Shown in pieces: positions 2,817 through 58,065 of a stretch of 64,000 nucleotides of DNA; position 1 is the first letter of the stretch, and each line of letters starts with the position of its first letter. A model generated the notes under the pieces. It worked only from the letters and a program-made list of their open reading frames with translations. It did no database searches and was not told the DNA's origin. The translations under genes were made by a program, and so were the position numbers. The DNA lies in contig PYJD01000023.1 of assembly GCA_003635315.1 (NCBI GenBank), positions 134,502 through 198,501 of the forward strand, in the 5' to 3' direction. Origin of the DNA: Candidatus Poribacteria bacterium (GTDB lineage Bacteria > Poribacteria > WGA-4E > WGA-3G).

Positions 2817-3290
2817 GAATTTCACATATGTTATATACACTGTCTGTATTGTTAAAAATGTTACACTTTTTGTCACATTGTGTGTCATTAGTAAAACCGC
2901 TTTCCTCCCTGTCACAGTCTATATTCATCCGTGTTTTTCTTACAATTATGAAAATTCTCAAATTGTGTGATAATGTGTCGTTCTTTCCTTTTTTATGGAG
3001 AATATCTGATACAGACATTTTAATACTATTTCTAAATAATAATATTCCATTTTTGTAACATAGCCTTTTAGGTTGTACCCTATTAGATGACATCCACATA
3101 GATCATCAATACAGCATTTTTTCTCAGAATTGGTATAAGTTATGTTTTTGTTTTTAAGATTATTATGAATGTATTGGATAGTCATTCGTTAGTTTCCTGT
3201 TTTATGTAAAAGTTACGAAATCGTAACTTTTTTCTGTCACCCCAATTTCAGTATAACCGCTATAAAGTAAGTGTTCATTTATGTTTACAG
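2817..3290 (-). repeat. Copy B of a dispersed ~480-bp non-coding element (same family as 39204-39692, 14171-14580, 57663-58065). Reverse orientation, ending ~155 bp upstream of the rbsK start.
   Basis: The reverse complement aligns along its whole length with 39204-39692. Shared blocks include ctgtaaacata, aaattggggtNacagaaaaaagttacgatttcgtaacttttt, aatgactatccaatac, atgtcatctaat, tgtctgtatcagatat, gactatgacaggg and gttttactaatgacacaNaatgtgNcaaaaagtgtaacatttttaacaa. It contains the palindrome aaaagttacgaaatcgtaactttt. Confidence 0.6.
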
Positions 3291-3567
3291 ACAATTTGCG
3301 AGTTTGTGTATATAAAAACAAAAAAGTACTGCTGATGGATTCCTTAGTAGAGAGTGTTAACTAATTTATGATATGGTGAAGTTCTTATGTTTGAAAATAT
3401 GCGCCACTAAGGGTTTAACTCTACAGATTTTTGAAATATCATCATTTGTTTTATATCCTCTTCATTATTTTATATAGTTAGTTGTGTAATGGTTAAGTTT
3501 TCTTCAATTATCTTTCAGTTGTTATGTATTTTGTTGTATTACTCTGGGTTTTAATTCATTTTTTAAA

Positions 3568-3768
3568 TTGTTTTGGAAAATTAATGTGTCCTTAAAACAA
3601 ACATTAGACATAGGTCACCAACCTATTGGTACGTATCACCATCGTAGCCATGCTGCACATTGGGACGGTAAAAACGCACAAGGTGAGTTTGTAGCAAGCG
3701 GTGTGTATTTCTACACCCTCACAGCAGGCGAGTTTAGTGCTACACGACGGATGTTAATTTTGAAGTAG
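3568..3768 (+). pseudogene. Remnant of a T9SS-type (Por secretion tail) C-terminal sorting domain; gene fragment
   Basis: The 66-aa ORF ends ...HWDGKNAQGEFVASGVYFYTLTAGEFSATRRMLILK. This parallels the C-terminus of the 14741..18322 protein (...HWDGRNTKNEKVASGVYFYTINAGGFKATRKMVIRR). There is no upstream protein body or signal peptide, and the surrounding region is AT-rich non-coding. Confidence 0.5.
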
Positions 3769-4053
3769 AATTCGATCCAAGACTATTAGGTGCAAATTCC
3801 TAACCGAACCCAGGATGGTTGGGAAACTGCACTTACCGCATATAGTAGTATGTAAAATCAATTGGACACCTAAACAGAATCCACGATTCAGACAAAAAAC
3901 CGTGTAATCCGCACTATCCCGATTCAGACATAATCTAATCACTCTCACTACTTTCGATTGACAATCCCCTCTTCGTTTGGTAAAATTCCATAGTTGTTTC
4001 CTTATCTATTGATATGCCTCATATACATTCTTATTCACTATTAGGAAGAGAAT

Positions 4054-5487
4054 TTGTCTAAAGAAAAAATCGGAATCCAGAAGGAAGAATTACTTCGAAA
4101 ACTACCTGCAATCGAAAAACTCCTGACACAACCTGAAATCATAAAAATAGTCGAATCGTATTCCAGATCGCTGGTTACGGACATATTGCGTTCTATCGTT
4201 TCAGATTTTAGATCGCAGATATTAGATGGTAATACTGAGATTAATATTCCTGACCCTGATGAATTCCCAGAATTAGTAATTCAACATCTTGAGTATAAAT
4301 TAAAGCCACCTATCCGGACTGTAATAAATGCTACTGGAACTGTAACACACACGAATCTGGGACGATCATTACTACCAAAATCTGTATGTGATAACATTCT
4401 CGATGCTGCACAGAATTATGTTAATTTAGAATACGACTTAGAAACAGGAACAAGGGGGCATAGAGATAGATTAACTGAACCTTTACTTCAAGAATTAACA
4501 GGATGTGAAGCTTCTACTGTAGTCAATAACAATGCTGCTGCAGTTCTTATTTCACTGAACACGCTTGCTCAAGGGAAAGAGGTTATTGTTTCACGAGGTG
4601 AACTGATTGAAATTGGGGGGGCATTCCGAATACCTGATGTAATGGCAGCAAGTGGTGCAATTCTTAGAGAGGTAGGGACGACCAATAGAACACATCTACG
4701 TGATTATGAAGATGCAATCAATGAGAATACTTCACTATTTCTCAAAGTTCATCCCAGCAACTATAAGATTCTCGGATTTACTTCAACACCAGATATGCAG
4801 GAGTTAGCACAACTTGGTAAAAAACATAACATATCTATAATGGAAGATTTGGGTAGTGGAGCATTAGTGGATCTATCGAATTACGGGCTTCCTTACGAAC
4901 CTGTTGTAGCAGATAGGATCAAAGCCGGAGTGGATTTAGTTACCTTTAGTGGAGACAAATTGTTAGGAGGTCCACAAGCTGGAATAATTGCTGGTCAATC
5001 AGAGATGATACAACGGATACGAAAGAATCCTTTGATGCGAGCATTACGAGTAGACAAATTAACAATTGCAGCCCTCTCAACCACATTACAGAATTATCTA
5101 TATTTAGATAACCATATAACGGATGATTTTCCAATGTTACAACGATATAGCCGTACTGTAGAGGAATTATATGCCTTTGCTGAAACTGTTTCTGATAGAT
5201 TACAGAACGTTTTTCAAGATAAAATCTCAATTAATATAACTGAAACAAAATCACAAATTGGGAGTGGATCACTTCCTGAAGAAACATTAGATAGTGTTGC
5301 TGTGGTGTTAACCCCGATGGTAATTTCTGTAGAAAAACTATCGGAGTTATTTCGACATGCAAGTATTCCGGTGATAGGACGAATTGAGGATAATCAGCTA
5401 TACTTTGATATCAGAACGTTATATGATGATGAAATAGATTGTTTAATCCAAACCAGTAATGAGATTTCATCAAGAATGAATGTATGA
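4054..5487 (+). CDS. selA: L-seryl-tRNA(Sec) selenium transferase (selenocysteine synthase)
   Basis: 477 aa, TTG start with AGGAAGAG RBS 4 nt upstream. It has the SelA-length PLP fold and the conserved FSGDKLLGGPQAGII lysine motif. Confidence 0.88.
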   Translation: MSKEKIGIQKEELLRKLPAIEKLLTQPEIIKIVESYSRSLVTDILRSIVSDFRSQILDGNTEINIPDPDEFPELVIQHLEYKLKPPIRTVINATGTVTHTNLGRSLLPKSVCDNILDAAQNYVNLEYDLETGTRGHRDRLTEPLLQELTGCEASTVVNNNAAAVLISLNTLAQGKEVIVSRGELIEIGGAFRIPDVMAASGAILREVGTTNRTHLRDYEDAINENTSLFLKVHPSNYKILGFTSTPDMQELAQLGKKHNISIMEDLGSGALVDLSNYGLPYEPVVADRIKAGVDLVTFSGDKLLGGPQAGIIAGQSEMIQRIRKNPLMRALRVDKLTIAALSTTLQNYLYLDNHITDDFPMLQRYSRTVEELYAFAETVSDRLQNVFQDKISINITETKSQIGSGSLPEETLDSVAVVLTPMVISVEKLSELFRHASIPVIGRIEDNQLYFDIRTLYDDEIDCLIQTSNEISSRMNV

Positions 5488-7606: not shown

Positions 7607-10600
7607 ATGATGAAGTTTACCCCAAATCAACAAAAAGCGCTTACCATTGATAAACATGTATGTGTCACTGCGGGGGCGGGATCAGGTAAGACTACTGTTT
7701 TAGTTGAACGATACCTTGAGATTCTTCGTAGTGGAAATATAACACCAAGTCAAATTGTAGCAATTACTTTTACGAAGAAGGCTGCTGCAGAGATTAAAGC
7801 ACGTATTATTAAAGAAATTCATGAGGAGCGGAATAGGAAAGTTCGTGAAAATTATATTGAAGAGATGAATACTGCTCCTATTTCAACATTTCATGCATTT
7901 TGTGCACGAATACTAAGAGAATACCCATTCGATGCTAAAATCCCAGCGTCTTTTACTATAATTGAAGGTATTGAACAAAAGATTTTATTGCGTGAAGTTA
8001 TCAAAAACGCATTCGATAATATTGTATCAAGTATAGATAACCCGTTTTATTCTCATCTTGAATTCTGTTTATATAGGACCAGAAATAAGCAATTTCTGAC
8101 TGATTTACTTACAGACATGGTGAATGAACGTTCGTCTATTGAAATACTAAGAGAATCTGTTTATGAGAATATCGACAATACTGATATTCCTCAGCGTTGG
8201 TATGAGGCATTTAATGCACCTATATTAACAGAGAAAGAATTATCTAACTTCATGGATAATCTATATTCTATACTCGAAATTTCAAAAGGCAGAAATGTTG
8301 AGAAAACAAGAGAACTACTACAACAAATTTCGACTTTATCTGTCCAAAATGAGGATAACGAAGAACAACGGAGATTACTCATTGAGATCACCGGATTAAT
8401 TAGTACTGCTAAGAATGAGATTGCCACAAGATATCTTGTAGGAATTAATGTAGACAAAACGGATATAGCTGACAATATTGAGCTTGTTCTTGATAAAGTT
8501 AAAAAAATCAAATCAGCACCTGTATATGATGCCAATACCAATTTTGAAACGGATGATGAGTTGTTGTATAAGATCTCACAAAATCTTCTTCCCCTATATG
8601 ATCTTATTTTAAAAAACTACCAAGAGATAAAATTCACTCAAGGAAAATTGGATAACCAAGACCTTCAACTTAAAACAGTATATCTATTAAAAAATAACCT
8701 ATCTGTAAGACAAAAGATCAGAAAACAGTTTAAGTATTACATGATTGATGAGTATCAAGATACAAACGAAATACAAAGTGAACTGGTGAATCTCCTGACA
8801 AATAACCTTAACGATTCTAATTTGTTCATTGTTGGTGATCCGAAGCAGAGCATCTATGGATTTCGTGGAGCGGATGTACGTGTATTTGATGAAACGAAAC
8901 AAAAAATTAAAGAACTGGATGGAGAAGATATTAGTCTTCAAGAGAATTACCGTTCTTTACGGGATGTAGTCGGATTCGTTAATTCCATTTTTAAAAGACA
9001 AGATGGGGATCAACTTGAGAATGAATTTGACGTGATTTATGAACCATTACATAAAGCACGTAGTGCAGATGGAAATGGTTCAGTCGAAATTATTCTACGT
9101 CAAGAAGAGTACGACATTTCTGAATCTGATCTTATTGCTCAGAAAATTAAGAGTATGATAGATTCAAAAGTGAAAATTTGGGAACAAGGGGAAGATATAA
9201 AAGAAACACCAAGAGCTATTCAATATGGTGATATAACCATTCTCATACGCTCAAGAGGACATTTACCTACCATTGAGACAGCATTAAATAAATTTGGTAT
9301 TCCCTATCTTACTTCTGGTGGAATTGGATTCTATCAACGACAAGAAATATATGATATTTGGAACTACCTCAATTTTCTCAGTAATCCTGATGGGAATGAT
9401 ACATCGTTAATTGGTGTTTTACGTGGACCGGCTTTTGGTATATCGGATGTAGAAATATTTGAAATATCTCATCTTGGAAAAGGTAGTTTTTGGGATAACT
9501 CTATTAAGTACAAATCACCTTCAAAAAGACTTTGTCAGGCTATTGCAACCCTAAAAAACCATATAGAAATTGCAAAACGAATGTCTATAAATAGACTTAT
9601 TCAGACCATTGTTAATGATACGGGTATGATAGGAGCTATTAAAACCGGTAATAAAGGTGAACAGAAATGGGCAAATTATAAGAAACTATTAGAACTTGCC
9701 GGGACTTATGATGGTGATGAATTCAGTGATTTACTTGATGAATTTGTTAAGTATCTGGATATACTGATTTCTGAAGAACCATTAGAAGGTGATGCACCTG
9801 TTGAGGAGAGTAGTTCTGCTGTTAAGATAATGACTATTCACTCAGCAAAAGGAAAAGAATTTCCAGTTGTGATTCTACCTTCCCTTGATAGACAAACTCC
9901 AACAACCCATGAACCTATAATAGATGATAAATTGGGGGTTGGTTTCAGCCCTTTGAGACCTGAAAAAGAATATCATAAAACCGAACCCGTGATAGTTCCT
10001 GCAATCAAAGATAGAAAAAAATCAAAGGAAAATGCCGAAGAGAAACGCGTGTTCTATGTCGGTGTAACCCGAGCAAGAGATCGGTTGATTCTCTCAGGTT
10101 CAATTAATGAAGAGGGTAAATCTAAAAACAGATTGCAAGAGATCATTGAGATTCTCGAATTTAGTAATGAAAATGACATGATACAAGTACAGGTAAAACT
10201 CGATGTGTATTCCGATGGAGAAACTATACAGGATATATTTCAACTACCAATACCAATCATTAAACAGATAGGTGAGATAGATAATAGAACCCCATTTGAT
10301 GAAATTACTAATACTCCTCCTGAATTACCTTATGATGAAATTGAGAAAAGTAATTACGCATCAACATTTAATGTACAGGAACTGGCTATCTATGGTCTAT
10401 GTCCTTTACGGTTCTACCTTGAAAATGTCCTCAATATCTCAGCATTGGGTGTAGACAGTAGACCTGAAGAAACGCAAATTCTTGATCAACAGAATGAAAA
10501 TCTGCTTTCATCTGAATTAGCGGAATTAAAATCATCATCACTTTTTTCTGTGTCAAACCAACAAATTCATACCAAATTGGATAAACATATAATATATGGT

Positions 10601-13462: not shown

Positions 13463-13888
13463 CTATAAGTCAAATATAACCTGTGCTTCCCATACGCCGT
13501 TTTCTATCTCACGTACATATAATTGGTGATATGTGACTGCCTTTATTTCTGTATAGACGATATGTTTATCAAAATTGGTTGGTTCACCATGTACACGTGC
13601 AAATAATTCTTCAGAGTTAATGCTTAAAATCTCGACGCGTTTAAAAAATAGCTCTTCTACCTCATGTTGATAAATTAATTCATCTAACCATGCTACCAAT
13701 AACATTTCTATAGAATCTGCTCTTACTTCAATATCCATTGACACTGTCTCATCAATTGAATCAATGACAGCCATCATTCCAAATAATCCCATTGCTGCAT
13801 TCGTAAATAGTAAATCAACTGAGTCTCCCCAAACACGCATTCCAGCATCAGCAGTATGTTCAAGGTATTCGTAGGTTTGTTTTTTCAT
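13463..13888 (-). CDS. Archease (RtcB-ligase accessory protein family)
   Basis: 141 aa; N-terminal YEYLEHTADAGMRVWG contains the archease EHTAD signature. Confidence 0.75.
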   Translation of the reverse strand: MKKQTYEYLEHTADAGMRVWGDSVDLLFTNAAMGLFGMMAVIDSIDETVSMDIEVRADSIEMLLVAWLDELIYQHEVEELFFKRVEILSINSEELFARVHGEPTNFDKHIVYTEIKAVTYHQLYVREIENGVWEAQVIFDL

Positions 13889-14170
13889 ATTTCTACAAAA
13901 TTTAAAATTAAATGAAGAAAAAATCTATATATAACATCTAATATTATCAAGTGCTACTTTTTAGCTCAAACTGTAAACCTATGATACAGAATATTGGCTA
14001 ACTATCAACATATTTCATTAATTAAAGATAGGTTTCCAAGTACAAATAATTATTGGTAGCAAATTAAGATAACATACATATACTACCAAGCACAAAATTG
14101 ATTTAAGATATTTAGATGACTTGAGTAAATCCTACTAAAAATTATAACCTTTATGAGAAGTATAAAATTA

Positions 14171-14580
14171 GAGAATAAATGATGAAAATCTATAAAAACG
14201 ATCCTAAATACCACAACTATCTTTATGTCAAAAAATCAACTATAATACGCAGGTTGAAATTGTCAAAATTCGCAAGCACAACAAAAACACAAAATCACAC
14301 TTTATGCAAATTCTTAAAAAGTTAATTCAAAGTGGAGTAAAGTCAGTCTATGACAGTGGTTAGAGGGGTATTTTACACCAATTTCAATGACACAGAATGT
14401 GTCAAAAAGTGTAACTTTTTTCAGTTTTTCGACACTTTTTCACAACAGTGAAAAAATCAACATTTTCACGATTATTGATCAGGGAATTTAGGATTAAAAG
14501 TCTGTTTTTGCACCTAATTAGGTTGTTAGGATATTAGGATTAAAAGTTCAATTTACGACTATTACATCTAATGCCATTTC
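14171..14580 (+). repeat. Copy A of the dispersed non-coding element (A/D subfamily), 100-160 bp upstream of the 1211-aa secreted protein gene
   Basis: ~88% identical over ~400 bp to 57663-58065. It shares the core ctatgacagNggttagaggggtaNtttacaccaatttcaatgacacagaatgtgtcaaaaagtgtaacttttttcagtttttc with copies B and C. Indels between A and D break every reading frame, so it is non-coding. Confidence 0.6.
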
Positions 14581-14740
14581 TAAATGACATAACACATCAA
14601 CCCGTTAGACATCATCATTCTGATAAATGGTATCATATTCTGGTTGACATAGATATGGAAATAATCATGATCAGAATAAATCTTATATGAATAATTCATG
14701 CTATTGGAATCGTTTTTCAATCCAAATTCACATTAAGACT

Positions 14741-23252: not shown

Positions 23253-23780
23253 AGTACTTCTCCATTAAGAACATATTTGCACGACAATTATAATGGGTAA
23301 TCGGAATAAACTATTTTGGTATTGACGATTAAGATCCTATTTATGGCTGACATATGAACCAATAAACTAATGTTATACCGTTTCTGATATATTACGAATC
23401 TCTTTTGTAGCATAAACTTTTAGTTTGTGCCGCACAACTCTTCATTTATAGCTATCGCTAATGGGGAAAAAAATAATAGAAAGGGTATTAGAAGGAAATA
23501 CCCATCACTATTTTCAATCATATATCTCGTTCACCGTTGTAAAGGTAGGATCCATTAAATTAAGAATACATTATTTTCTTATCAATCTAACAGTATTATA
23601 GCATATTGTCATTCATCAAGAATTAATATTTCATCGACTTTACAGGATTACTTCGTATACAGAATAAGAGTAAAACAAGAGCACTATCCTATTCTTTAGA
23701 CTTCTCAAAATTTGCAATACCTCCCTTTTCATGTTAAAATATACCATCAATTATTTATGCAAACAGTATGGAGTAAGTTA

Positions 23781-33010: not shown

Positions 33011-33185
33011 CTGTCTTGTAGGCGGGGAATGCCAATAAGGCATTCATACCCGGTGAATGCTAAACAGCATTCATACCGTTGATTCCTTGATTTGTATTCC
33101 GATTCCCAATTGTCAAAGGGTTTGATCGCGATTCGGAGATCGCTCCCGACGAATACCAAAAGCGTATTCGACGTTGATTCACAAA
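33011..33185. repeat. Cluster of small hairpin repeats (cttgtaggcggggaatgcc..cattcataccc; gaatgct..agcattcataccgttgattc; cgaataccaaaagcgtattcg)
   Basis: Nearly identical to 45957-46005 over ~45 bp. Similar hairpins occur at 38508, 38585 and 39785. Confidence 0.6.
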
Positions 33186-36330: not shown

Positions 36331-36363
36331 TAAACCATCTGTTAGATTGTGTTGGTATTTGTA
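36331..36363. repeat. Isolated unit of the 32-bp hairpin repeat, followed by a GC-rich hairpin (36417-36455)
   Basis: ttagattgtgttggtatttgtagcacaatctg, with GATTGTG/CACAATC forming a 7-bp stem. The GC hairpin ccggtaggtgcggtttgtaaccgtaccgg recurs as cccggtaggcgcggtttgcaaccgcgccg at 45847-45880. Confidence 0.7.
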
Positions 36364-36488
36364 GCACAATCTGTATGAAGTTTAATTATTAAAATCGGTA
36401 ATTCTAATTTACCGCTGCCCCGGTAGGTGCGGTTTGTAACCGTACCGGATTTCGTCAAGATATTACCGAATGATTAAATTAATCTTCA

Positions 36489-36796
36489 TTTAGATTGTGT
36501 ATGTAGCACATTCTTTTAGATTGTGTTGGTGTATGTAGCACATTCTTTTAGATTGTGTTGGTGTATGTAGCACATTCTTTTAGATTGTGTTGGTGTATGT
36601 AGCACATTCTTTTAGATTGTGTTGGTATTTGTAGCACAATCTGTTAGATTGTGCCCGTGATTGTAGCACAATCTGTTAGATTGTGCCCGTGATTGTAGCA
36701 CATTCTTTTAGATTGTGTTGGTGTATGTAGCACATTCTTTTAGATCGTGCCCGTGATTGTAGCACATTCTTTAGATTGTGTATGTAGAGATCCTCT
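36489..36796. repeat. Tandem array of ~10 head-to-tail 32-bp units with no spacers; each unit is a hairpin. It lies between convergent genes.
   Basis: The unit is ttagattgtg-N10-tagcaca(a/t)tct(g/t). Three variants of the central 10-mer occur (ttggtgtatg, ttggtatttg, cccgtgattg). The units are directly abutting, so this is not a CRISPR array. Confidence 0.85.
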
Positions 36797-36847
36797 AACA
36801 GATGTATTCAATTAATTCTAAAGTTCACTATAACCTAACACTGAACA

Positions 36848-37864: not shown

Positions 37865-38221
37865 AGATTGAATTTTATAGTCAACAATAAAAATCTATTG
37901 TTTTATATTAAGGCATTTAGATTCTTGCCGTAACTGACTACAGAAAAGGCATCAGTTGGTGGTTAATACAATCCAAACACATCTCCTTACACAAACCCCT
38001 CTTCTCCGTGATTCTGATTAAATTAAAAAATAATGAAGAAAATCTATACACAAACATCTAAAGTAACATAAGTGAAAAATAAGGTTGAAATATCATTCCT
38101 AACAACCGGTAATGAGATCAAGGTATAACCATGAATCCTATACGAATTGCAGAACTAAGGACTGAGCATTTGAAGATGTATAAAAAAGGGAAGGAATTTC
38201 TAATCATATTTGATTGATTTC

Positions 38222-38470
38222 TACCCTCTTGTAGGTCGGGTAGAGGAACGAAACCCGACACGTGTTGATTGGATCTATCCTGGTGTGATTTGTACCTCAA
38301 CCCATATGTGTCAACTCAGTGATTACCTGTCTTGTAGGTCGGGTAGAGGAACGAAACCCGACGAATTCCATATGCGGATTCGGCGTTGATTTGGACACGT
38401 GTTGATTGGATCTATCCTGGTGTGATTCGTACCTCAACCCCATATGTGTCAACTTGGTGGTTTATAGTTG
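38222..38470. repeat. Two tandem copies of a ~105-170-bp palindromic (MITE/REP-like) element
   Basis: cttgtaggtcgggtagaggaacgaaacccgac ... acgtgttgattggatctatcctggtgtgattNgtacctcaacccatatgtgtcaact occurs twice. The 5' end (gggtagaggaac) and 3' end (gtacctcaaccc) are imperfect inverted repeats. Confidence 0.65.
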
Positions 38471-38499
38471 TCTGATATTGATGTCTTTAGTCCCGTCAA

Positions 38500-38600
38500 A
38501 TGCCACACGGTGAATGTCTAAATGACATTCATACCCACCGAATTCCACAAGCGGATTCGGTGTTGATTTCGGGGAATACTAAATAGAATTCATACCGTTG
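38500..38600. repeat. Hairpin repeats of the gaatgNN-loop-NNcattcataccc / ccgaattccacaagcggattcgg family
   Basis: ggtgaatgtctaaatgacattcataccc, then ccgaattccacaagcggattcggtgttgatttcgg, then gaattcataccgttgattccttgattcc. Related copies lie at 33020-33185, 39785-39850 and 45970-46000. Confidence 0.55.
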
Positions 38601-39203
38601 ATTCCTTGATTCCTTGATTTGGCACATTTGGCGTTGATTGGTACGGACTATATGTATTAATGTAATCTTACATCAATAACAAATGTAAATAAGTATAAAT
38701 TAGTATCACAAAATATAACTTTTTCCTTGACTCATGATTTTTATTATGTTACTATATATATTACAATAAAAACACCACTTGAAAAGTTGTTGTGAAACTT
38801 TCACAACAGTTGTGAATGGAAAATAAAATCTCAGATGTCTACAAACCTATACCAGATAAGGGTTTACACCACATATAACAAGTACAGAGCATAAAAATTA
38901 AAAAATAAAAATAAAATATAGGTTTTTCAGAAATATCTATAAACCCAATCTAAGACTGGCTTTAGGGCATTTTAAAACATGGTGTTTAAAAAAATGTGTT
39001 GTGAAAAGGCTATTTGTTATTACGAACTAAAGGAGAACTTTTAAGTCAACCCATGAACATACTACCGAAATTCAGTATATCTCACAAAATGATAAACAAA
39101 AAACCGAAATGATTACCCTTAATTGTTAGAACTTATGAGATATATACTACGAAGGAATCCACAAAGTAAACTTTTTTTATTTTTTAATAGAAAATCGTAA
39201 ATT

Positions 39204-39692
39204 GCCTGTAAACATAGATGGGGACAGACCTAACAGCGACTATACTAAAATTGGGGTTACAGAAAAAAGTTACGATTTCGTAACTTTTTACATAAATACA
39301 GAAAACTTTCTAATGACTATCCAATACTTTCAAATTAATCTTAAAAATAGCATCACCTATACCATTTCTGAGAGAGAAAGCTGTATGGATGGTTTATGGG
39401 TATGTCATCTAATTAGGTACACCCTAAAATTTTATGTTGCAATAATGAGAAATTATTATTTAGAAAATGTATTACAAATGTCTGTATCAGATATACCCCC
39501 AAAAAATATAAAAAATAAAAAAGTAGAAGGACACAAAATAACACAATTCAAGAATTCTTACTATTCTAAAAAAACACCGATGAACGCAGACTATGACAGG
39601 GCGGACAGCAGTTTTACTAATGACACAAAATGTGTCAAAAAGTGTAACATTTTTAACAAAATAAATAATATATATTACAAATGTGAAAATTG
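39204..39692 (+). repeat. Copy C of the dispersed ~480-bp non-coding element, ending ~330 bp upstream of the LamG gene
   Basis: Aligns end-to-end with the reverse complement of 2817-3290 at ~75-80% identity. Its 3' core gactatgacagggcggacagcagttttactaatgacacaaaatgtgtcaaaaagtgtaacatttttaac is shared with copies A and D. Confidence 0.6.
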
Positions 39693-40032
39693 AAAAGCCA
39701 ATAAAACAGAGGATTTTTATACTAAATTCTATATAATTAGTTCCCATTACGAACACTCTTTATTGTCGTTCTGAGGATGGATGGGAATGACATTAAGACT
39801 TTCATTCCCATCGAATTCTATACGCCGATTCGACCTTGATTTGGTAGGGACGATATGTTTATAAGGCGAAGTTTTGATACCTACAAGTACAAGAAATCAT
39901 TTGACTTTTCAAGGCAAATTTGCTATCCTTAAATATTGAAATAGTCCTATGTGTAAATAGGTTTAATATATGTTTTGCCTCTATTAGGATATATATGCTA
40001 AACAAGAATTATTATATAATTCAAGGATTAAT

Positions 40033-45792: not shown

Positions 45793-45846
45793 CTTATCAT
45801 GAGTTCCATGTAAGGACAATTTAGATAAACATCATCCAACAAACCC

Positions 45847-45935
45847 GGTAGGCGCGGTTTGCAACCGCGCCGAATATAATATTACATGTGGATTTAAGAG
45901 AACTATTCATTTAGAAATGGTATTATGGTGAAATA
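45847..45935. repeat. GC-rich hairpin (GCGCGGTT-tgc-AACCGCGC) followed by a ~60-bp AT-rich segment that recurs at 50297-50360
   Basis: ccgaatataatattacatgtggatttaagagaactattcatttagaaatggtat here versus ccgaatataatataacatgcgtatttatgacacctatttatttagaaatggtat at 50297-50350. The hairpin half recurs at 36417-36455. It may also act as the comM terminator. Confidence 0.55.
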
Positions 45936-45956
45936 TTGACATAATTATACACATTA

Positions 45957-46050
45957 CTTGTAGGCGGGGAATGCCCAATAAGGCATTCATACCGTTGATT
46001 CGATCTCCAAATCGCGATCAAGCCTGTGATAATCGGGAATCGGAATTCCC
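45957..46050. repeat. ~95-bp MITE/REP-like element with imperfect terminal inverted repeats
   Basis: cttgtaggcggggaatgcc...attccctcctacaa, with ends tgtaggcggggaat and attccctcctaca. The first 45 bp are nearly identical to 33011-33055. Confidence 0.6.
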
Positions 46051-46157
46051 TCCTACAAATCAGTATGTAGAATAAATTGTATATTCTACCATATATACTT
46101 ATGTCGAACTTATTCCAAAATTGATTCATCTGGTAATTAGGAGTTTTTGGAGAAAGC

Positions 46158-50193: not shown

Positions 50194-50408
50194 AAAGGAC
50201 ATCGTCTATGCTATAAAACAACATTCTTAAATGAACATAAACTAATACCATTTCTAAGAAATTTTATGACATATCAACGTAATTCACCACAAACCGCTCC
50301 GAATATAATATAACATGCGTATTTATGACACCTATTTATTTAGAAATGGTATAAGAATGGAAAGGTATGAAATTACCTAATCACTAAAACTTATGAAATG
50401 AGGATATA

Positions 50409-51704
50409 ATGCACTGTAATACATCATTGACACATATGCAGTTTAGTCGCAATACTATATTCTTTTTTATCTGCTGCATATCAATGTTTATTATCAGTTG
50501 TGGCGATGATGGATCATTACCATTAACTGAAAGCACAGAACCTATTGATGACATTTTTACGGTAAGTGAGTGGGATAAAATTAAAAGTCTCTCTCCACTA
50601 CCAGATAACCCACCACCCAGTCCAACAAACCGAGTTGCGGATAACGCTAATGCTTCGAAGTTAGGACAGATGTTTTTCTTTGATGAAAGATTCTCAAAAG
50701 ACGCAACTATTGCTTGTGCCACATGCCACTCTCCATTTCATGGATTTGCTGATGTTGAAGCAACATCATTAGGAAACGGAAGAGGGACCAGAAATGCTCC
50801 CACATTATTAAATGCTGCATACAACAATTGGCAATTTTGGGATGGACGTGCTGATTCACTTTGGGCACAAACCATTTTTGCATTAGAAGGTGAGAAGGAA
50901 CAAGCTGGCAATCGCCTACAGTTTTCACATTTAGTCTATAAACATTATAAGGAAGATTATGAATCAGTTTTCGGATCTTTACCAGATTTAACTGATACAA
51001 ATCGATTTCCTAAAAATGGTAAACCAGGAGATTATCAGTTTGATAATATGTCAGATGCTGATAAAATTGCAATCAATTCAATACTCGCAAATATAGGTAA
51101 AGCAATCGAAGCATACGAAAGACTATTAATTAGTCGAAATTCCCCTTTTGATCAATATGTAGCCGGGGATGTAAACGCAATCGGAATTCAGGCTAAACAG
51201 GGATTAAAGGTTTTTATTAGAGAAGGGAGTTGTATTGAGTGTCATAACAGTCCAACTCTTACTGACAATAAATTCCACAATGTCGGTCTTCCACAAGGGA
51301 ATCTCCCCTTAGATTATGGTAGATCTGATGGGATCAAACAACTGTTAGAAAACCCATTTAATGGACTTGGTATCTATAGTGATAATACGGAGATACCTAA
51401 ACTTATACTTGACTCATTAGCAGGATCAATTGAAACTGATGGTCAATTTAAAACACCATCATTAAGAAACGTAGCTCTAACTGCACCCTACATGCATACT
51501 GGAGATTTTCCTACATTGAAATCCATTCTGAGTTTCAATAGAAATGATGTTACAACAGCAGAATATGTGGGAATAGCTGAATCTACACGCAACTCAGGTA
51601 TTCTAACACAACAAGAGATGAGTGATTTAGTCGAATTTCTACAAACATTAACGGGTGAATTACCACCAGAACATCTCCTACAAAAGCCTAAACTACCAGA
51701 ATAA
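50409..51704 (+). CDS. Di-haem cytochrome c peroxidase (CCP/MauG family) lipoprotein
   Basis: Lipobox FIISCG. Haem 1 CATCHSPFHGF...GTRNAPTLLNAAYN..QFWDGRA; haem 2 GSCIECHNSP; conserved FKTPSLRNVALTAPYMHTG. Confidence 0.85.
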   Translation: MHCNTSLTHMQFSRNTIFFFICCISMFIISCGDDGSLPLTESTEPIDDIFTVSEWDKIKSLSPLPDNPPPSPTNRVADNANASKLGQMFFFDERFSKDATIACATCHSPFHGFADVEATSLGNGRGTRNAPTLLNAAYNNWQFWDGRADSLWAQTIFALEGEKEQAGNRLQFSHLVYKHYKEDYESVFGSLPDLTDTNRFPKNGKPGDYQFDNMSDADKIAINSILANIGKAIEAYERLLISRNSPFDQYVAGDVNAIGIQAKQGLKVFIREGSCIECHNSPTLTDNKFHNVGLPQGNLPLDYGRSDGIKQLLENPFNGLGIYSDNTEIPKLILDSLAGSIETDGQFKTPSLRNVALTAPYMHTGDFPTLKSILSFNRNDVTTAEYVGIAESTRNSGILTQQEMSDLVEFLQTLTGELPPEHLLQKPKLPE

Positions 51705-53735: not shown

Positions 53736-55001
53736 ATGATGAAGAAACCATTAACTTCTATCGGGATAATTAATTGCTTATTATTAATCATTATCGCATG
53801 TGGTGAAGATACAACCTTCAATAATGACATCGATAATGAGTTTGAAGTAGATATTTTCACAGAACGTGAATGGGCAGTAATACAACGTTTATCTCCATTG
53901 CCTATTGAACCACCTCCAAGTCATACAAATCGATTTGCTGATAATCCTGATGCAGCAATATTGGGTCAGAAGTTCTTCTTTGATGAACGATTCTCAAAGG
54001 ATGGAACAGTAGCATGTTCGACTTGCCACTCCCCATTTTACGGGTTCGCAGATGCAGAAGCGACTTCATTAGGGGCTGGTAGAGGAACAAGAAATGCACC
54101 AACACTATTAAATGTAGCCTACAATAAGTGGCAATTCTGGGATGGTCGGGCAGATACACTATGGTCCCAAGCTCTTATCGCATTAGAAGGGGATACAGAA
54201 CAAGCAGGGACACGACTACAGTTTGCACATCTTATAAACGAATATTATAAGTCAGAATATATCAAGGTTTTCGGTGAATTTCCTAATTTAACAGATACAA
54301 ATAAATTCCCAAAGGATGGAAAACCGGGAGATCAACAATATGACAATATGGCAGAGAAAGATAAGGTTTCGATTAACACTGTCTTCGCTAATATCGGTAA
54401 GGCAATTGAAGCCTATGAACGACTCTTGATCAGTAGGAATGCTCCCTTCGACAAGTATGTGGCAGGTGATAGAAATGCAATTGGAGAAGAAGCTAAACGG
54501 GGATTAAAAACCTTCATTGGAAAGGGTGTCTGTATTCTATGTCATGATAATCCTAATTTCACTGACAATGAGTTCCACAATCTTGGTGTACCACAGGGAC
54601 AACTTTCTACGGATACAGGACGGTATGATGGTATAAAACAATTAATAGATAATCCTTTCAATGGAGGGGGAATTTATAGTGATGAACCTACTGTCTCTCA
54701 ACGAATTATTGATTTTCTTGAACCCACATCATTACATCAAGGGCAATTTAAGACCCCAACACTAAGAAACGTTGCACTTACTGCTCCCTATTTTCATACG
54801 GGTGGATTCCCAACGTTGGCATCAGTCATTGAATTTAACAATGCTGGGGGTGTTCCGTCAGGTTTTGTTGGTACCAGAGAGGGAACACTTGAACCCTTAC
54901 ATCTTACCGTACAGGAAGCAGAAGAATTAGTTGAATTCCTTCTAACACTTACTGGTGAATTACCAGCTGAGTATCTATTAAGAAAACCCATCCTTCCATA
55001 G
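53736..55001 (+). CDS. Di-haem cytochrome c peroxidase (CCP/MauG family) lipoprotein, paralogue of 50409..51704
   Basis: Lipobox IIIACGED; CSTCHSPFYGF and GVCILCHDNP haem motifs; FKTPTLRNVALTAPYFHTG. About 60% identical to the first CCP over the catalytic core. Confidence 0.85.
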   Translation: MMKKPLTSIGIINCLLLIIIACGEDTTFNNDIDNEFEVDIFTEREWAVIQRLSPLPIEPPPSHTNRFADNPDAAILGQKFFFDERFSKDGTVACSTCHSPFYGFADAEATSLGAGRGTRNAPTLLNVAYNKWQFWDGRADTLWSQALIALEGDTEQAGTRLQFAHLINEYYKSEYIKVFGEFPNLTDTNKFPKDGKPGDQQYDNMAEKDKVSINTVFANIGKAIEAYERLLISRNAPFDKYVAGDRNAIGEEAKRGLKTFIGKGVCILCHDNPNFTDNEFHNLGVPQGQLSTDTGRYDGIKQLIDNPFNGGGIYSDEPTVSQRIIDFLEPTSLHQGQFKTPTLRNVALTAPYFHTGGFPTLASVIEFNNAGGVPSGFVGTREGTLEPLHLTVQEAEELVEFLLTLTGELPAEYLLRKPILP

Positions 55002-55385: not shown

Positions 55386-56204
55386 ATGAAAAAAGTGATA
55401 TTTACTATGGCTATGGTAATAGGGTATTCTTTAACTCTATTAACTTCTCCAATGCCAAGTATTGCATTACCACTTGGAGAAGTAGCCATATTTACTGAAC
55501 AATCCGGTTGGATCGCTCAGAATGCAGCACAGAGAGAAGGGGAAGTATTGGCGGACCTGCTAAAGAAACCTACTGATGTTGTTACTCTGACAGACAAAGA
55601 AATTGGTGATTGGGCTAAAGAACGTACAGATAACGGTATAGCTGATATTATCGTTACCTTCGGTTGGTTCCCAACAACCCTATACCCACCCGGTAATCAA
55701 AAGCCAGATGGTTCCGTGGCTGAAGATTTCCTTGAAGGGGGAAATGTTTTCCTTAACACTGCTGACTATATCTTTTATGTCACACAAGGTGGTGGTGCCA
55801 ATGGTGAACAAGGTTTGAAAAACATGATGGACATTAATGCTGACATGTGGTCAGGTGGTTCTGGGATCAAACCTACTGCTGATGGGAAAAAATATACACC
55901 AAGTCTGGGTAATTTTACTTCAGAACGTACATTCAAAGCAGCACAGATTACTGATCCATGGGAAGTTGAAGTCACCTTAGGCGATACTGGATCCGGTAAT
56001 ATCGATCCAGCAATCGTCCATGATACTGAAACCGGTGGACGTATAGGGATTGCTTTTCAAGAACCAAATAACGCTGGACTCCCACGAGGTAAGGTCTTAG
56101 CAGAGATGATTGATAACTTCCTTTTCGAAGTTCTTGGCCCTCAAGCTGTTGATCCGCAACAGAAAGCTACAACCACATGGGGACTTTTAAAATCTGATTT
56201 TTAA
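55386..56204 (+). CDS. Secreted protein of unknown function, 272 aa, ending in ATTTWGLLKSDF
   Basis: ATAAGGAGTG RBS; signal peptide MKKVIFTMAMVIGYSLTLLTSPMPSIA. Conserved blocks FGWFPTTLYPPGN and NTADYIFYVTQGGGANGEQGLK. No family recognised. Confidence 0.5.
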   Translation: MKKVIFTMAMVIGYSLTLLTSPMPSIALPLGEVAIFTEQSGWIAQNAAQREGEVLADLLKKPTDVVTLTDKEIGDWAKERTDNGIADIIVTFGWFPTTLYPPGNQKPDGSVAEDFLEGGNVFLNTADYIFYVTQGGGANGEQGLKNMMDINADMWSGGSGIKPTADGKKYTPSLGNFTSERTFKAAQITDPWEVEVTLGDTGSGNIDPAIVHDTETGGRIGIAFQEPNNAGLPRGKVLAEMIDNFLFEVLGPQAVDPQQKATTTWGLLKSDF

Positions 56205-56280
56205 TTGGAATTATTAACGCTATTATGTAATAATAATGATTCAATATATCCTTGTATTATAACTCTCAAAGGAGAATTTA

Positions 56281-57099
56281 ATGAACTTGAGAAAATTGAT
56301 ATTCGCATTTACCATCCTTTTTGTTTTCGTCGCTACTACATCCAGTTGGGCAGGACTTGGCGATGTTGCTATCTTCAGTGAAGCAACAGGATGGATATCA
56401 AAAGATAATGCTGACATTCAGCGCGCTATTGTATTTGATAATTTAAAGGACGAAGTGGCTTCTGTTGGTGATGTTGTCTATAAAACCGATGAAGAAATTG
56501 GTCCTTGGGCAGAAGATAGAATTGATGATGGGAAAGCTGACATTATCATCGTTTTTGGTTGGTTCCCAACTACTCTATATACACCTGGGAATTCACAGGT
56601 TGATGATTCAATCGCAGAACGTTTCCTATACGGTGGGAATATCATTCTAAATTGTGCTGACTATGCTTTCTATGTTACACAAGGTGGTGGTGCAAATGGT
56701 GAGAATGGTTTGAAAACCATCATTAATATCAATGCTGATATGTGGGGTGGTGGTACGGCTATTACACCTACTGATGATGGAGAGAAATATACACCTTCCT
56801 TGGTGAATTTTACTTCTGAACGTCCTTTTAAAGCAGACCAAATTGTTGATCCATGGAGTGTTGAAGCAAAATTCGGTGATAACGGCGATACCTTCTTTGA
56901 TCCAGGTATCATTAAGTTGAATGATAGCAGTGGACGTGTTGGTATCTGTATGCAAGAACCAAATAGAGGCGACTTGCCACGCGGTCAAGTCTTAATTGAA
57001 ATGATCAGTTTCATTTCAATGCAAGATGATGTTGCTACTCCGGTTGAACCAAATGGTAAAACTTCTACGACATGGGGTACACTTAAAGCTTCTTGGTAA
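56281..57099 (+). CDS. Tandem paralogue of 55386..56204 (272 aa, secreted), ending in TSTTWGTLKASW
   Basis: AAAGGAGAA RBS; signal peptide MNLRKLIFAFTILFVFVATTSSWA; ~55% identical to the upstream paralogue, including FGWFPTTLYTPGN and NCADYAFYVTQGGGANGENGLK. Confidence 0.5.
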   Translation: MNLRKLIFAFTILFVFVATTSSWAGLGDVAIFSEATGWISKDNADIQRAIVFDNLKDEVASVGDVVYKTDEEIGPWAEDRIDDGKADIIIVFGWFPTTLYTPGNSQVDDSIAERFLYGGNIILNCADYAFYVTQGGGANGENGLKTIININADMWGGGTAITPTDDGEKYTPSLVNFTSERPFKADQIVDPWSVEAKFGDNGDTFFDPGIIKLNDSSGRVGICMQEPNRGDLPRGQVLIEMISFISMQDDVATPVEPNGKTSTTWGTLKASW

Positions 57100-57133
57100 T
57101 CTCAATCGGTTCTACAAGGCAAATCAATTAAAA

Positions 57134-57178
57134 GGAAAAGCGTATCTTCCAAATGGATGATACGCTTTTCCTTTATAC
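57134..57178 (+). terminator. Rho-independent terminator after the paralogue pair
   Basis: Perfect 13-bp stem ggaaaagcgtatc / gatacgcttttcc with a 12-nt loop, followed by tttatac. Confidence 0.6.
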
Positions 57179-57662
57179 TATTAGAGTTATTATACTATTT
57201 CAAATTGATTGTATGACATTATGTTACACCTTCCTCTGTAGTAGGGAACTCCAATTCCCGATCTTCTTTCAATGGTCAATGGAAAACTATTATTATAAAT
57301 GGTATAACGACATATCGAAACGTAACCTCTAATGAAAAATGACAATAATTAGCCATTATTCTGAAACGAGAACTTCCAACTAACCTCATAAAGAAGCACA
57401 TACTGAAAGTTTTCGCTACAAGACACCAACTTATGATATAGATTGAAAATAAATTGAAGAAATTTAAATGATCACACATCACATATTTGAAATAGAGTTG
57501 ACAGAATAGGAACACTATGTTACAATAACATATAGAGAATAAATATAATACTTATGCTAATATATAATATTAGATAAAGCATTAAATTTACGAATCTATA
57601 AACAGTTCTACAAATCACAATAATATAACACATACTAATTCCGCAATTAAGGTTTCTAATAA

Positions 57663-58065
57663 GAGAAATAAATGATGATTATCTACAAAAACGATCCTAA
57701 ATGCAAAAAAATATTTATGTCAAAAAACCGACATTATTTGCCGGTAGGAATTGTCAAAATTCGCAAGAACATTAATAGAACAAAATCACACTTTTTGCAA
57801 ATTCTTATAAAGTTAATTCAAAGTGGAGTAAAGTCAGTCTATGACAGAGGTTAGAGGGGTAATTTACACCAATTTCAATGACACAGAATGTGTCAAAAAG
57901 TGTAACTTTTTTCAGTTTTTCAACGAATTGAAAAACACAACATTTTCACGATTTATCATCAGGGAATTTAGGATTAAAGGTCTGTTTTTGCACCTTATTA
58001 GTTGTCCATATATTAGGATTAAAAGTCAAAACTACGACTATGAATTCTAATACTATATAAGAAAA
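57663..58065 (+). repeat. Copy D of the dispersed non-coding element (A/D subfamily), ending ~80 bp upstream of the FAH gene
   Basis: ~88% identical to 14171-14580. It includes gacacagaatgtgtcaaaaagtgtaacttttttcagtttttc and cagggaatttaggattaaa(g/a)gtctgtttttgcacct. Confidence 0.6.

Follow-up and report, generated by a model that had tools for sequence, protein, structure and literature searches.

The window, the whole 64,000-nt stretch of DNA analyzed here, comes from a Candidatus Poribacteria MAG and contains four copies (A to D) of a noncoding repeat (Table 1). An earlier note on this DNA had placed them at 2817-3290 (minus strand), 14171-14580, 39204-39692, and 57663-58065, each just upstream of a gene, and both the approximate positions and the downstream genes held: in the order A to D, these encode a PfkB kinase, a 1211-aa LVIVD/T9SS-tail protein, a Laminin_G_3 (LamG) protein, and an FAA hydrolase (FAH). 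The common core of the copies, AATGACACAnAATGTGTCAAAAAGTGTAAC, was matched four times in the window at ≤3 mismatches, against 0.00 matches expected from 100 shuffles, and the only window matches to CAAAAAGTGTAAC were the four copies. In each, the 36-nt core consists of a 7-bp hairpin followed by AAAAAGTGTAACnTTTT. The palindrome GACACA-n3-TGTGTC described previously is present but is actually 7 bp long (TGACACA-n3-TGTGTCA), with TGTGACA in copy A. REP-like GTAG-hairpin repeats (family D11) also occur in the window.

The copies had been grouped as B with C and A with D, but these pairs were swapped. Alignment in positional order, over the extents given in Table 1, pairs A with C (~590 bp; 79 to 85% identity in ungapped stretches, ~80% overall) and B with D (~400 bp; 77 to 89% identity, ~87% overall). 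Similarly, the palindrome AAAAGTTACGATTTCGTAACTTTT, attributed to B and C, was located in A and C instead, and its 24 nt are identical in A, C, and the copies at loci L002, L009, and L027.

TABLE 1 Repeat copies, cores, composite blocks, and promoter-like sites in the window
Feature	Position	Strand	Description
Copy A	2755..3345	-	Subfamily 2, partner C; alignment and inverted-repeat arms of 79-85% identity
Core of copy A	2854..2889	-	Hairpin TGACACA-caa-TGTGACA (one pair broken) plus AAAAAGTGTAACATTTTT
Copy B	14168..14587	+	Subfamily 1; partners are D and 22 copies of the second MAG
Core of copy B	14386..14421	+	Repeat match and core pattern search
Copy C	39150..39765	+	Subfamily 2; diverged counterparts upstream of LamG orthologue in L041 and L043
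Core of copy C	39619..39654	+	Repeat match and core pattern search
Copy D	57657..58056	+	Subfamily 1; alignment
Core of copy D	57877..57912	+	Repeat match and core pattern search
Perfect 24-nt palindrome	3208..3231	.	In copy A; restricted to subfamily 2
24-nt subfamily-2 palindrome	39265..39288	.	In copy C
Composite block with copy A	2739..3943	.	72 bp here in L040; between -35 boxes of divergent rbsK-like and SelA promoters
Composite block with copy B	13891..14643	.	Module X (13886-13973), module Y, copy B, short TIR module
Composite block with copy D	57177..58075	.	~97 bp of unrelated spacer in L035 (GCA_022394755.1); right edge 8 nt upstream of FAH -35 box
Own promoter of rbsK-like gene, TTGACA-18-TATAAT (12/12)	2698..2727	-	Downstream of copy A; conserved in L040
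Promoter-like site of 1211-aa gene, TTGACA-16-CATGAT	14644..14671	+	Downstream of copy B; homology to relatives resumes here
Promoter-like site of LamG gene, TTGACT-17-TATCCT (TG-extended)	39901..39929	+	Downstream of copy C; within stretch conserved in L041/L043
Promoter-like site of FAH gene, TTGATT-17-TATAAG	58084..58112	+	Downstream of copy D; conserved in L035; direct sequence reading

A search with the exact core recovered 34 further copies, all in one other Poribacteria MAG (CAZZBB01). The exact core was absent from all remaining genomes of the 185,579 species genomes searched and had no match in JGI metagenomes or viral contigs. At least 5 of the copies in CAZZBB01, and probably ~12, adjoin contig ends, as is the case for assembly-breaking repeats. 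The loci of this MAG were taken as forward 8-kb slices of its contigs.

At the heart of the copies is a conserved unit of ~170 nt that ends in the hairpin (7 bp with a 3-nt loop) and, immediately after it, AAAAAGTGTAAC(A/T)TTTT. There are at least four subfamilies, formed from differing 5' and 3' modules joined at the core; the core is the sole stretch common to all of them and the place where the modules recombine. Other small repeats are nested within or adjoin the copies. In subfamily 1, ~110 nt around the core are 93 to 100% conserved, compared to ~75% elsewhere. Upstream of the LamG orthologue, the diverged copies of L041 and L043 retain AAAAGTGTAACnTTTT but differ in the hairpin arms, which change from GAC/GTC to CCT/AGG to GTT/AAC. 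In a curated alignment of the hairpin, 94% of cells pair and 3 of the 7 pairs have changed on both sides; none of 500 shuffles reached the covariation score. We infer that the functional site is the hairpin plus the adjoining box.

The element had been called noncoding on the grounds that indels destroy every ORF. Copy C does retain an open frame of 163 aa (39202-39693), which has no Pfam match, but indels of 1, 3, and 13 nt relative to A break this frame, and the noncoding assignment stands. The copies are also not fragments of a coding transposon: they share no conserved ORF, there is no multicopy transposase-like ORF in the 330 kb around them, and no transposase or recombinase was found among the ORFs of the 34 MAG loci and the window (~330 kb). 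The suggestion of a MITE does not hold in the strict sense, because no terminal inverted repeats or target-site duplications were found; in subfamily 1, the sole inverted repeat is internal and 9 bp long, ATCCTAAAT/ATTTAGGAT.

The orientation bias first noticed in the window was upheld in an independent census, in which the downstream ORF was co-oriented with the element in 26 of the 28 copies that could be scored among the 34 of the second MAG (30 of 32 with the window included). Within the window, co-orientation was confirmed at all four sites, but it is automatic at three of them, which are divergent intergenic regions. Where both neighbors are known, copies lie between tandem genes in co-orientation (11 cases) or anti-orientation (1), between divergent genes (8), or between convergent genes (1), and convergent intergenic regions are almost free of copies. 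Of the four MAG contigs that carry two copies, three have them facing opposite ways, which indicates that orientation follows the genes and not the direction of replication. The downstream genes are functionally unrelated, and the next start codon lies anywhere between 200 and 1200 nt away.

Relative to sister genomes, the copies are insertions, which supports the mobile-element side of the earlier reading. At all three sites tested (A, B, and D), sister genomes have a spacer of 72 to 97 bp where the window has a mosaic of repeat modules of 750 to 1200 bp, and these mosaic blocks stop 0 to 9 nt from the -35 box of the downstream gene's own sigma70-type promoter. The close relative L040 is empty at sites A and B; L041 and L042 are likewise empty at B, and L035 at D. 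The block with copy B takes the place of an 88-bp spacer in L040; it stretches between a point 6 nt from the archease start codon and the TTGACA of the next gene, so the archease promoter must now lie in inserted repeat DNA. No target-site duplication was recognizable at the compared sites, because the native spacers were replaced and not cleanly split.

In GCA_022394755.1, SelA adjoins the LamG block, so the segment between sites A and C has the opposite orientation to that in the window. Copies A and C form a pair of inverted repeats separated by 36 kb, and the palindrome AAAAGTTAC-GATTTC-GTAACTTTT is perfect in five subfamily-2 copies with flanks only ~80% identical, as might be expected if the GTTAC...GTAAC palindromes were crossover sites of a site-specific recombinase and the copies acted as switches or rearrangement sites (invertons or endpoints of large inversions). 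We consider this very improbable. The palindrome is absent from subfamilies 1, 3, and 4, no recombinase gene lies nearby, and homologous recombination between the 590-bp inverted repeats would yield the same inversion. Moreover, three different neighbors occur upstream of SelA among four genomes, which makes that region a general breakpoint hotspot.

Downstream of the element, the genes have sigma70-type promoters of their own (Table 1), which are conserved in genomes without the element. A promoter within the element is therefore not required, and no sigma70-type promoter conserved across subfamilies was found. The same arrangement makes the proposed shared leader RNA unlikely, since the element falls outside the 5' UTR of these genes. 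More broadly, a structured noncoding RNA transcribed toward the downstream gene, whether an sRNA gene, a long 5' leader or attenuator, or a guide-type RNA, seems quite improbable to us. Co-orientation with the gene and the compensatory hairpin changes, including a G-U-compatible plus-strand pair in L045, agree with an RNA, as does the subfamily-1 core region, which folds better than shuffles (z ~ -3) and can form two hairpins that exclude each other, arranged as in an attenuator. However, subfamilies 2 and 4 and the L041 and L043 copies lack the alternative hairpin, a double change was seen at just 1 of the 42 pairs predicted for the 17 subfamily-1 copies, no terminator-like site was found, and Rfam gave no family match even at E values up to 5. 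The 7-bp hairpin was borne out, with no conserved fold beyond it; this hairpin was all that RNAalifold recovered from 25 diverse units.

The core could alternatively be the operator or upstream activating site of a dimeric DNA-binding regulator, marking a large regulon, with the repeat as a mere vehicle. The core holds a perfect 17-bp palindrome (TGACACA-n3-TGTGTCA) and a quasi-palindrome (AAAAAGT-gta-ACTTTTT), it is always upstream of the promoters, and its arms are uniform within a genome and different between genomes, a pattern that co-evolution of site and protein would produce. We nevertheless judge this improbable, given the wide range of distances to the start codon, the lack of a function common to the downstream genes, and the eight copies with an uncompensated mutation in one arm (TGTGACA). 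A palindrome also has no orientation and cannot alone explain the orientation bias.

The box itself resembles the -35 element of promoters read by ECF sigma factors. For ECF16, EcfF, and SigX, -35 boxes of the GTAAC type have been described (PMC8315932, PMC3420878, PMC12153292), and AAAAGTGTAAC(N)TTTT matches both the -35 TGTAAC and the T-rich start of the spacer in these promoters (PMC12153292, PMC8315932, PMC3420878). An identical box is found in L045, where it is part of TGTAAC-N16-CGTC, 18 nt ahead of an ECF sigma gene; this could be a chance pattern match, as 4 matches to the 21-base variable-gap pattern were found where ~1 to 4 are expected in a database of that size. The ECF-WD40 gene at L017 of the second MAG has AAAATGTGAAACTTTTT...CGTCAC, and GTAAC-N14-CG[AT][CA] occurs in 16 copies, mostly of subfamilies 1 and 3. 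As a -10 element, the CG(T/A)C box fails or is noncanonical: it follows GTAAC by 14 nt, compared to 16 to 17 nt in ECF promoters, and neither subfamilies 2 and 4 nor the relatives' copies in L041 and L043 have it at all.

HUH enzymes (IS200/IS605, REP/RAYT, relaxases) use a variable-sequence hairpin with a conserved single-strand motif of 10 to 12 nt behind it. The element has the same architecture, and it may be a purely selfish repeat without host function, in which the hairpin and GTGTAAC are the recognition and cleavage site of an HUH (Y1) transposase acting in trans, of a RAYT-like enzyme, or of a site-specific recombinase; gene-facing placement on the promoter side would then reflect target choice or tolerance, not regulation. 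This reading, which we regard as possible though rather unlikely, fits the arms that covary between genomes next to a constant box, the use of the core as the exchange junction of 5' and 3' modules, the intact promoters downstream, and the REP-like repeats in the window, and the lack of terminal inverted repeats and target-site duplications is in keeping with single-stranded DNA transposons. It has difficulty with an orientation that is not tied to replication, unlike that of IS200/IS605 elements, and with the lack of a Y1 or RAYT gene in the sampled DNA. In addition, conservation extends 5 nt beyond GTAAC in every genome, the diverged copy at the LamG site is retained in three genomes, which suggests selection beyond mobility, and the 11:1 excess of tandem co-orientation is not obviously explained by targeting alone.

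Known repeats match the family in part. REP/BIME repeats with their RAYT (Y1 HUH) enzymes are likewise short extragenic hairpins with genome-variable arms and an adjoining conserved motif, present in high copy number and in BIME-like mosaics with other modules, and without terminal inverted repeats or target-site duplications. REPs differ in having a 5' GTAG and longer G+C-rich palindromes, mostly downstream of or between convergent genes, whereas the Poribacteria hairpin is A+T rich and only 7 bp long, has its conserved motif on the 3' side, and avoids convergent regions; a RAYT gene was not seen in the sampled Poribacteria DNA. PATEs derived from IS200/IS605 are also nonautonomous, with a subterminal hairpin and neither terminal inverted repeats nor target-site duplications. 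IS608 cleaves at TTAC and TCAA, and a TTAC/TAAC-like motif adjoins the hairpin here as well. However, IS200/IS605 orientation follows the replication fork while Poribacteria copies face both ways on one contig, no TnpA or TnpB was seen, and the ends and target tetranucleotide of the Poribacteria family are not definable.

Correia elements of Neisseria (CREE/NEMIS) are multicopy, noncoding, nonautonomous intergenic repeats too, often found immediately ahead of genes, to which they can contribute promoters or processing sites, and their subfamilies also arise by internal indels. They are 100 to 155 bp long with 26-bp terminal inverted repeats and a TA duplication, in contrast to the Poribacteria family, which has neither, is 400 to 600 bp long and modular, is defined by an internal hairpin and GTGTAAC box, and shows a much stronger gene-facing bias (30 of 32). 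BOX elements of Streptococcus pneumoniae resemble it as modular mosaics (boxA, boxB, boxC) of short noncoding intergenic repeats near gene starts, for which effects on expression have been proposed, but they are unrelated in sequence, and their modules of 45 to 60 nt lack a core of hairpin plus box.

Taken together, we tentatively favor, at a confidence somewhat short of probable, a lineage-restricted family of modular, noncoding, most likely nonautonomous mobile repeats in a Poribacteria clade that would also carry a directional signal. The repeats accumulate as 0.7- to 1.2-kb mosaics in the spacer that separates the upstream gene from the -35 box of the next gene's own sigma70-type promoter. 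A trans-encoded enzyme recognizing the same hairpin and box would move the element. The signal would direct transcription toward the downstream gene, and only copies aimed at the 5' side of a gene would be tolerated or retained. Because the box is of the ECF-sigma type, the favored candidate signal is an auxiliary promoter with GTGTAAC as its -35 element, which may regulate the downstream gene. The family is best read as a new modular nonautonomous mobile repeat, which may bring such a signal to the 5' side of Poribacteria genes.

The four repeat copies in the window belong to a family of small elements that share a core, a short hairpin followed by a GTGTAAC-type box. A 30-nt pattern of this core, AATGACACAnAATGTGTCAAAAAGTGTAAC, had exactly four matches in the 64-kb window with up to three mismatches allowed, versus 0 expected matches in 100 shuffles of the window, and the copies are thus real and non-random; CAAAAAGTGTAAC was likewise restricted to these four within the window. 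The earlier note had divided the copies into two subfamilies, and the division stands, but the pairs it gave (A with D, B with C) do not: both repeat finding and alignment placed A with C (subfamily 2) and B with D (subfamily 1). According to the repeat finding, the 36-nt core alone was common to both pairs, and the A/C pair carried a 24-nt palindrome, AAAAGTTACGATTTCGTAACTTTT. Pfam agreed with the note on the downstream genes, which encode a PfkB kinase (the rbsK-like gene, copy A), a 1211-aa LVIVD protein with a T9SS-type tail (B), a Laminin_G_3 protein (LamG, C), and an FAA hydrolase (FAH, D).

We rejected a coding role for the element. An open frame of 163 aa in copy C had no Pfam match, and it was broken in copy A by indels of 1, 3, and 13 nt in the pairwise alignment. 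Nor do the copies appear to be fragments of a protein-coding transposon, in keeping with the note's view of a non-coding element: ORFs were not conserved, and no multi-copy transposase-like ORF or cognate IS was found in the ∼330 kb sampled around the copies. An all-against-all blastp of 613 ORFs returned just WD40, LamG, PhyH, SDR, and FGE-sulfatase paralogues.

A 1113-aa UvrD-like protein encoded in the window was 100% identical to a protein of an NCBI Candidatus Poribacteria bacterium MAG (locus tags C6497_), and other window proteins likewise had their top hits in Poribacteria. When 185,579 species were scanned for the core with one genome each, 34 matches were returned, all in one other Poribacteria MAG, CAZZBB01, for a total of 38 non-coding copies of 400 to 600 bp without conserved ORFs. 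CAZZBB01 is a genome distinct from that of the window because its matches to the window were limited to repeats. The exact core was absent from JGI metagenome contigs and viral contigs; phage and plasmid records held no exact copy and gave no blastn match, and an origin from phage or plasmid was rejected on the latter. An nhmmer profile of the unit described below found one diverged copy each in two loci of relative genomes, L041 (GCA_022394755.1) and L043, both upstream of the LamG orthologue and pointing at it, as copy C does. The CAZZBB01 loci were forward 8-kb slices of contigs (last-block lengths agree with contig sizes modulo 8000); five copies lay 4 to 330 nt from a contig end, and several others were cut at a slice start. 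Copies at contig ends are the usual mark of a repeat that breaks assembly, and the true copy number is thus higher. A literature search by MAG study accession and for Poribacteria repeats yielded nothing relevant.

The 38 copies formed at least four subfamilies, told apart by the sequence flanking the core. A unit of ∼170 nt was homologous across all of them, starting near (G/A)ACACAAAAT and ending ∼5 nt past GTAAC, and GTGTAAC(N)TTTT was present in every copy from the window and CAZZBB01 as well as in L041 and L043. Two alternative modules occurred 3′ of the unit, and the 5′ side was variable too, so that the core is a junction where modules combine. Conservation in the 24 copies of subfamily 1 was 93 to 100% over the ∼110 nt surrounding the core, well past the positions that the search pattern itself dictated, and ∼75% over the remainder. 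A module that we call module X was often found 5′ of subfamily-1 copies, and a ∼110-bp module with TIRs trailed many of them in CAZZBB01.

This ∼110-bp module, with TIRs TACCATTTCTAAATGA...TCATTTCTTAGAAATGGTA, forms a MITE-like family that is separate from the core family and also occurs in the window. At least eight other short repeat families were common to the window and CAZZBB01, and a further insertion was seen relative to L035, a locus of a relative genome. The intergenic DNA of this Poribacteria lineage is unusually repeat-rich.

Coordinates of the repeats, insertion blocks, and other features in the window. L035 and L040 to L043 are loci of relative genomes; L035 and L041 are both from GCA_022394755.1.
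Feature	Window position	Strand	Remarks
Copy A	2755-3345	minus	pairs with copy C: 79-85% identity, ungapped stretches, ~590 bp
Copy B	14168-14587		pairs with copy D: 77-89% identity, ~400 bp
Copy C	39150-39765		pairs with copy A
Copy D	57657-58056		pairs with copy B
Block at site A	2739-3943		~1205 bp; 72-bp spacer in L040 (88-90% nt identity)
Block at site B	13891-14643		~750 bp; 88-bp spacer in L040; L041 and L042 also empty
Block at site D	57177-58075		~900 bp; ~97 bp of unrelated spacer in L035 (~82% identity)
~110-bp MITE-like module	14577-14650, 29745-29860, 45896-45961, 50242-50355		
~110-bp MITE-like module, nested	3016-3138, about 39380-39480		inverted inside subfamily-2 copies
Other short repeat families, first four	13883-13973, 23362-23499, 33017-33146, 38006-38097		
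Other short repeat families, last four	38229-38629, 45860-46097, 57246-57313, 57407-57639		
Further insertion	45793-46148		relative to L035 349-387
Archease gene	13463-13888	minus	
Module X	13886-13973		
Archease candidate promoter	13950-13922	minus	TTGATA-17-TAGATT
Inversion breakpoint regions	2739-3943, 37865-40032		intergenic, repeat-laden
32-nt tandem array	36497-36781		~9 copies, 90% matches; weaker copies spanning 36338-36807
436-aa ORF	35020-36330		
REP-like repeats	29878-29910, 38227-38259, 38330-38362		
CCP_MauG-like paralogues	50550-50849, 53850-54149		71-73% DNA identity (both duplications)
Adjacent 272-aa paralogues	55574-55873, 56469-56768		pair also in L035, L036, L043

We compared filled and empty sites at A, B, and D using syntenic loci from sister genomes, and the copies are insertions relative to these genomes. 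The native spacers of 72 to 97 bp were replaced and not cleanly split; for this reason no target-site duplication was recognisable at the three filled/empty pairs. The note had also suggested a MITE, which does not hold in the strict sense: TIRs were looked for at the similarity boundaries and none were found, the sole inverted repeat being an internal 9-bp one in subfamily 1.

The edges of the inserted blocks fell beside promoters. At site A, the block stops 9 nt short of the −35 hexamer of the rbsK-like gene's promoter (a perfect TTGACA-18-TATAAT), and its other edge stops ∼10 to 25 nt short of the promoter of SelA (TTGACA-17-TAAAAT), on the upstream side in both cases. The block at site D stops 8 nt upstream of TTGATT-17-TATAAG, and that at site B has TTGACA at one end and comes within 6 nt of the archease start codon at the other. 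The promoters at block edges are conserved in genomes without the element, and the element therefore precedes the promoters that belong to the genes themselves and is outside their 5′ UTRs. Given the distance of 6 nt at site B, the archease promoter must now sit in inserted repeat DNA. Own promoters were also sought in the last 150 nt before each downstream gene, with start codons taken from crude ORF calls, and 7 of the 30 reached P ≤ 0.05. The window stops being homologous to three sister genomes 6 nt before the archease start codon, which is where module X begins, and a candidate promoter can be read on the minus strand. Repeat DNA appears to have taken the place of this gene's promoter and 5′ UTR.

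Orientation was scored on a crude ORF map (ORFs of ≥110 aa) from the first ORF 3′ of the core. This ORF was on the same strand as the element for all four window copies and for 26 of the 28 scorable copies in CAZZBB01 (30/32; two-sided binomial P ∼2.5e-7), so that the gene-facing placement claimed in the note extends to an independent genome. It is important to note that divergent regions force co-orientation, and the breakdown by context is thus the informative measure: 11 copies were tandem and co-oriented, 1 was tandem and anti-oriented, 8 were in divergent regions, and 1 was in a convergent region. The 11:1 ratio in tandem contexts has a P value of ∼0.006. Three window copies are on the plus strand and one on the minus strand, and in three of the four CAZZBB01 contigs with two copies the copies faced opposite ways, each towards its own downstream gene; on the latter evidence, an orientation coupled to replication is unlikely and was rejected. 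Among the products of the downstream genes are a ribokinase-like kinase, oxidoreductases, LysS, ThiD, a peroxiredoxin, CorA, and an ECF-WD40 protein. As these are functionally unrelated, a regulon of related functions was also rejected.

The diverged copies of L041 and L043 retain AAAAGTGTAAC(N)TTTT, and the hairpin arms differ in complementary fashion, from GACACA/TGTGTC in the window to CCTACA/TGTAGG in L041 and GTTACA/TGTAAC in L043. In a curated core alignment, a small sample of 10 distinct sequences, 94% of cells paired (12 to 49% in slid controls), two-sided change was found in 3 of 7 hairpin pairs, and the covariation score was reached by 0 of 500 shuffles. We take this pattern as evidence of selection. 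Within both repeat-rich genomes the arms were identical in all copies, with one uncompensated change in eight copies.

The note had further raised the possibility of a shared leader RNA, and two lines of evidence argue against it. At rbsK, FAH, the T9SS-protein gene, and LamG, the conserved sigma70-type promoters are found 3′ of the element, and in the window and two subfamily-3 loci no Rfam family reached gathering score, nor did any match the elements with E up to 5. RNAalifold found nothing conserved beyond the core hairpin, whether given 17 subfamily-1 copies or 25 diverse units, and the terminator scan found no intrinsic terminator-like site. Two mutually exclusive hairpins are possible around the core in subfamily 1 (z about −3); neither subfamilies 2 and 4 nor the copies of relatives can form this alternative.

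A scan for sigma70 promoters gave counts equal to the shuffle expectation, and a PWM census over the copies found no sigma70-type promoter kept in all subfamilies. The sole candidates were weak and ∼100 nt 3′ of the core (TTCACG-18-TAGGAT in subfamily 1 and TTCACA-18-TATAGT in subfamily 3). A GTAAC-type −35 with a CG-containing −10 located 16 to 17 nt downstream has been described for ECF16, EcfF, and SigX (PMC8315932, PMC3420878, PMC12153292). The element's box is of the GGAAC/GTAAC type expected of an ECF −35, but the −10 spacing does not fit: 16 copies, chiefly from subfamilies 1 and 3, have a CG box 14 nt away, and subfamilies 2 and 4, L041, and L043 have none. When metagenomes were scanned with a loose pattern, four hits were obtained, about the chance expectation, three of them without a hairpin. 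In the fourth, the metagenome contig L045, the same box follows a 7-bp hairpin and takes the form TGTAAC-N16-CGTC; 18 nt separate it from the start codon of the downstream gene, which encodes an ECF sigma factor. Upstream of the ECF-WD40 gene in L017, a CAZZBB01 locus, AAAATGTGAAACTTTTT-...-CGTCAC is very near the element's AAAAAGTGTAACTTTTT...CGTCAC. On paper, the box thus resembles an ECF −35, and an ECF promoter is the favored but unproven mechanism.

Promoter-like or box-like sequences were also observed outside the element. L017 (CAZZBB010000103) has a textbook ECF-type promoter, TGAAAC-N17-CGTC, ∼60 nt upstream of a 1276-aa gene whose product joins an ECF sigma domain to WD40 propellers, and a subfamily-1 copy lies 500 nt upstream of this gene. 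An unrelated metagenome contig (L046, WBZR01000150.1, ∼8724-8790) carries an iteron-like array of four direct GTGTAAC repeats in 45 nt, GGTGTAACAAAAAGTGTAACATTTTGTGTAACCGTGTAAC, in which the heptamer is identical to that of the element's box.

Gene order around the copies differed among relatives. In GCA_022394755.1 (L041 4630-6574), SelA adjoins, divergently, the LamG-PPIase-TrkA-ChlI block, so that the 34-kb segment between the inverted copies A and C has the opposite orientation to that in the window, L040, and L043, with breakpoints in two repeat-laden intergenic regions. Among four genomes, three different neighbours were found upstream of SelA. A tandem array of a 32-nt unit, GTGTATGTAGCACATTCTTTTAGATTGTGTTG, sits between a 436-aa ORF, whose L043 counterpart has cohesin and dockerin domains, and an aldo-keto reductase gene; the array lacks spacers and is therefore not a CRISPR. 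We also observed two pairs of paralogues, one CCP_MauG-like and one of adjacent 272-aa proteins. REP-like repeats, TCTTGTAGGTCGGGTAGAGGAACGAAACCCGAC, in which GTAG is followed by a G+C-rich hairpin, are present in the window, and GTAGG-hairpin sequences of a similar kind occur in L041 and L043; the REP-like repeats hint that this clade may have a RAYT-type system.

We compared the core family with known systems. Like MITEs, the copies are small, multi-copy, and non-coding, but the TIRs of MITEs are wanting. REP/BIME units have GTAG and an imperfect palindrome of 20 to 40 nt, whereas here the hairpin is 7 bp, there is no GTAG, and the conserved motif is 3′; no RAYT gene flanked by REPs was seen in the sampled loci. 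In the IS200/IS605-derived PATE, orientation follows replication, in contrast to the copies here, which face both ways on contigs. A PATE also has subterminal hairpins at both ends and inserts 3′ of a fixed tetranucleotide or pentanucleotide; the copies here have one conserved hairpin, with a second palindrome in subfamily 2 only. With regard to an inverton, subfamily 2 has GTTAC...GTAAC palindromic sites, and no recombinase gene is nearby. The Poribacteria family works in the manner of promoter-side repeats, of which Correia and BOX elements are examples. It does not conform to the definitions of MITE, REP, and PATE, and our best description is that of a new and modular repeat of Poribacteria, non-autonomous and mobile, with a conserved hairpin-plus-box core.

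The core may be a transcription signal used by the host or the mere handle of a mobilising enzyme. A rather unlikely proposal is that of a mobile regulatory cassette, with the hairpin marking an ECF-sigma-type promoter or operator, or else of fixed-orientation transposition that recognises the upstream edge of promoters. As a cassette, the signal, copied 5′ of dozens of unrelated genes, would join them into one stress-responsive regulon in this Poribacteria lineage. To our knowledge, gene regulation in the uncultured phylum Poribacteria is almost wholly unexplored. If the directional signal is real, the family would clearly exemplify, in nature, how a mobile element can spread a single regulatory site 5′ of many unrelated genes. 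Even if it is purely selfish, it explains assembly breaks in these MAGs, marks rearrangement breakpoints, and serves as a lineage marker, and its hairpin-plus-box motif could lead to the mobilising enzyme.
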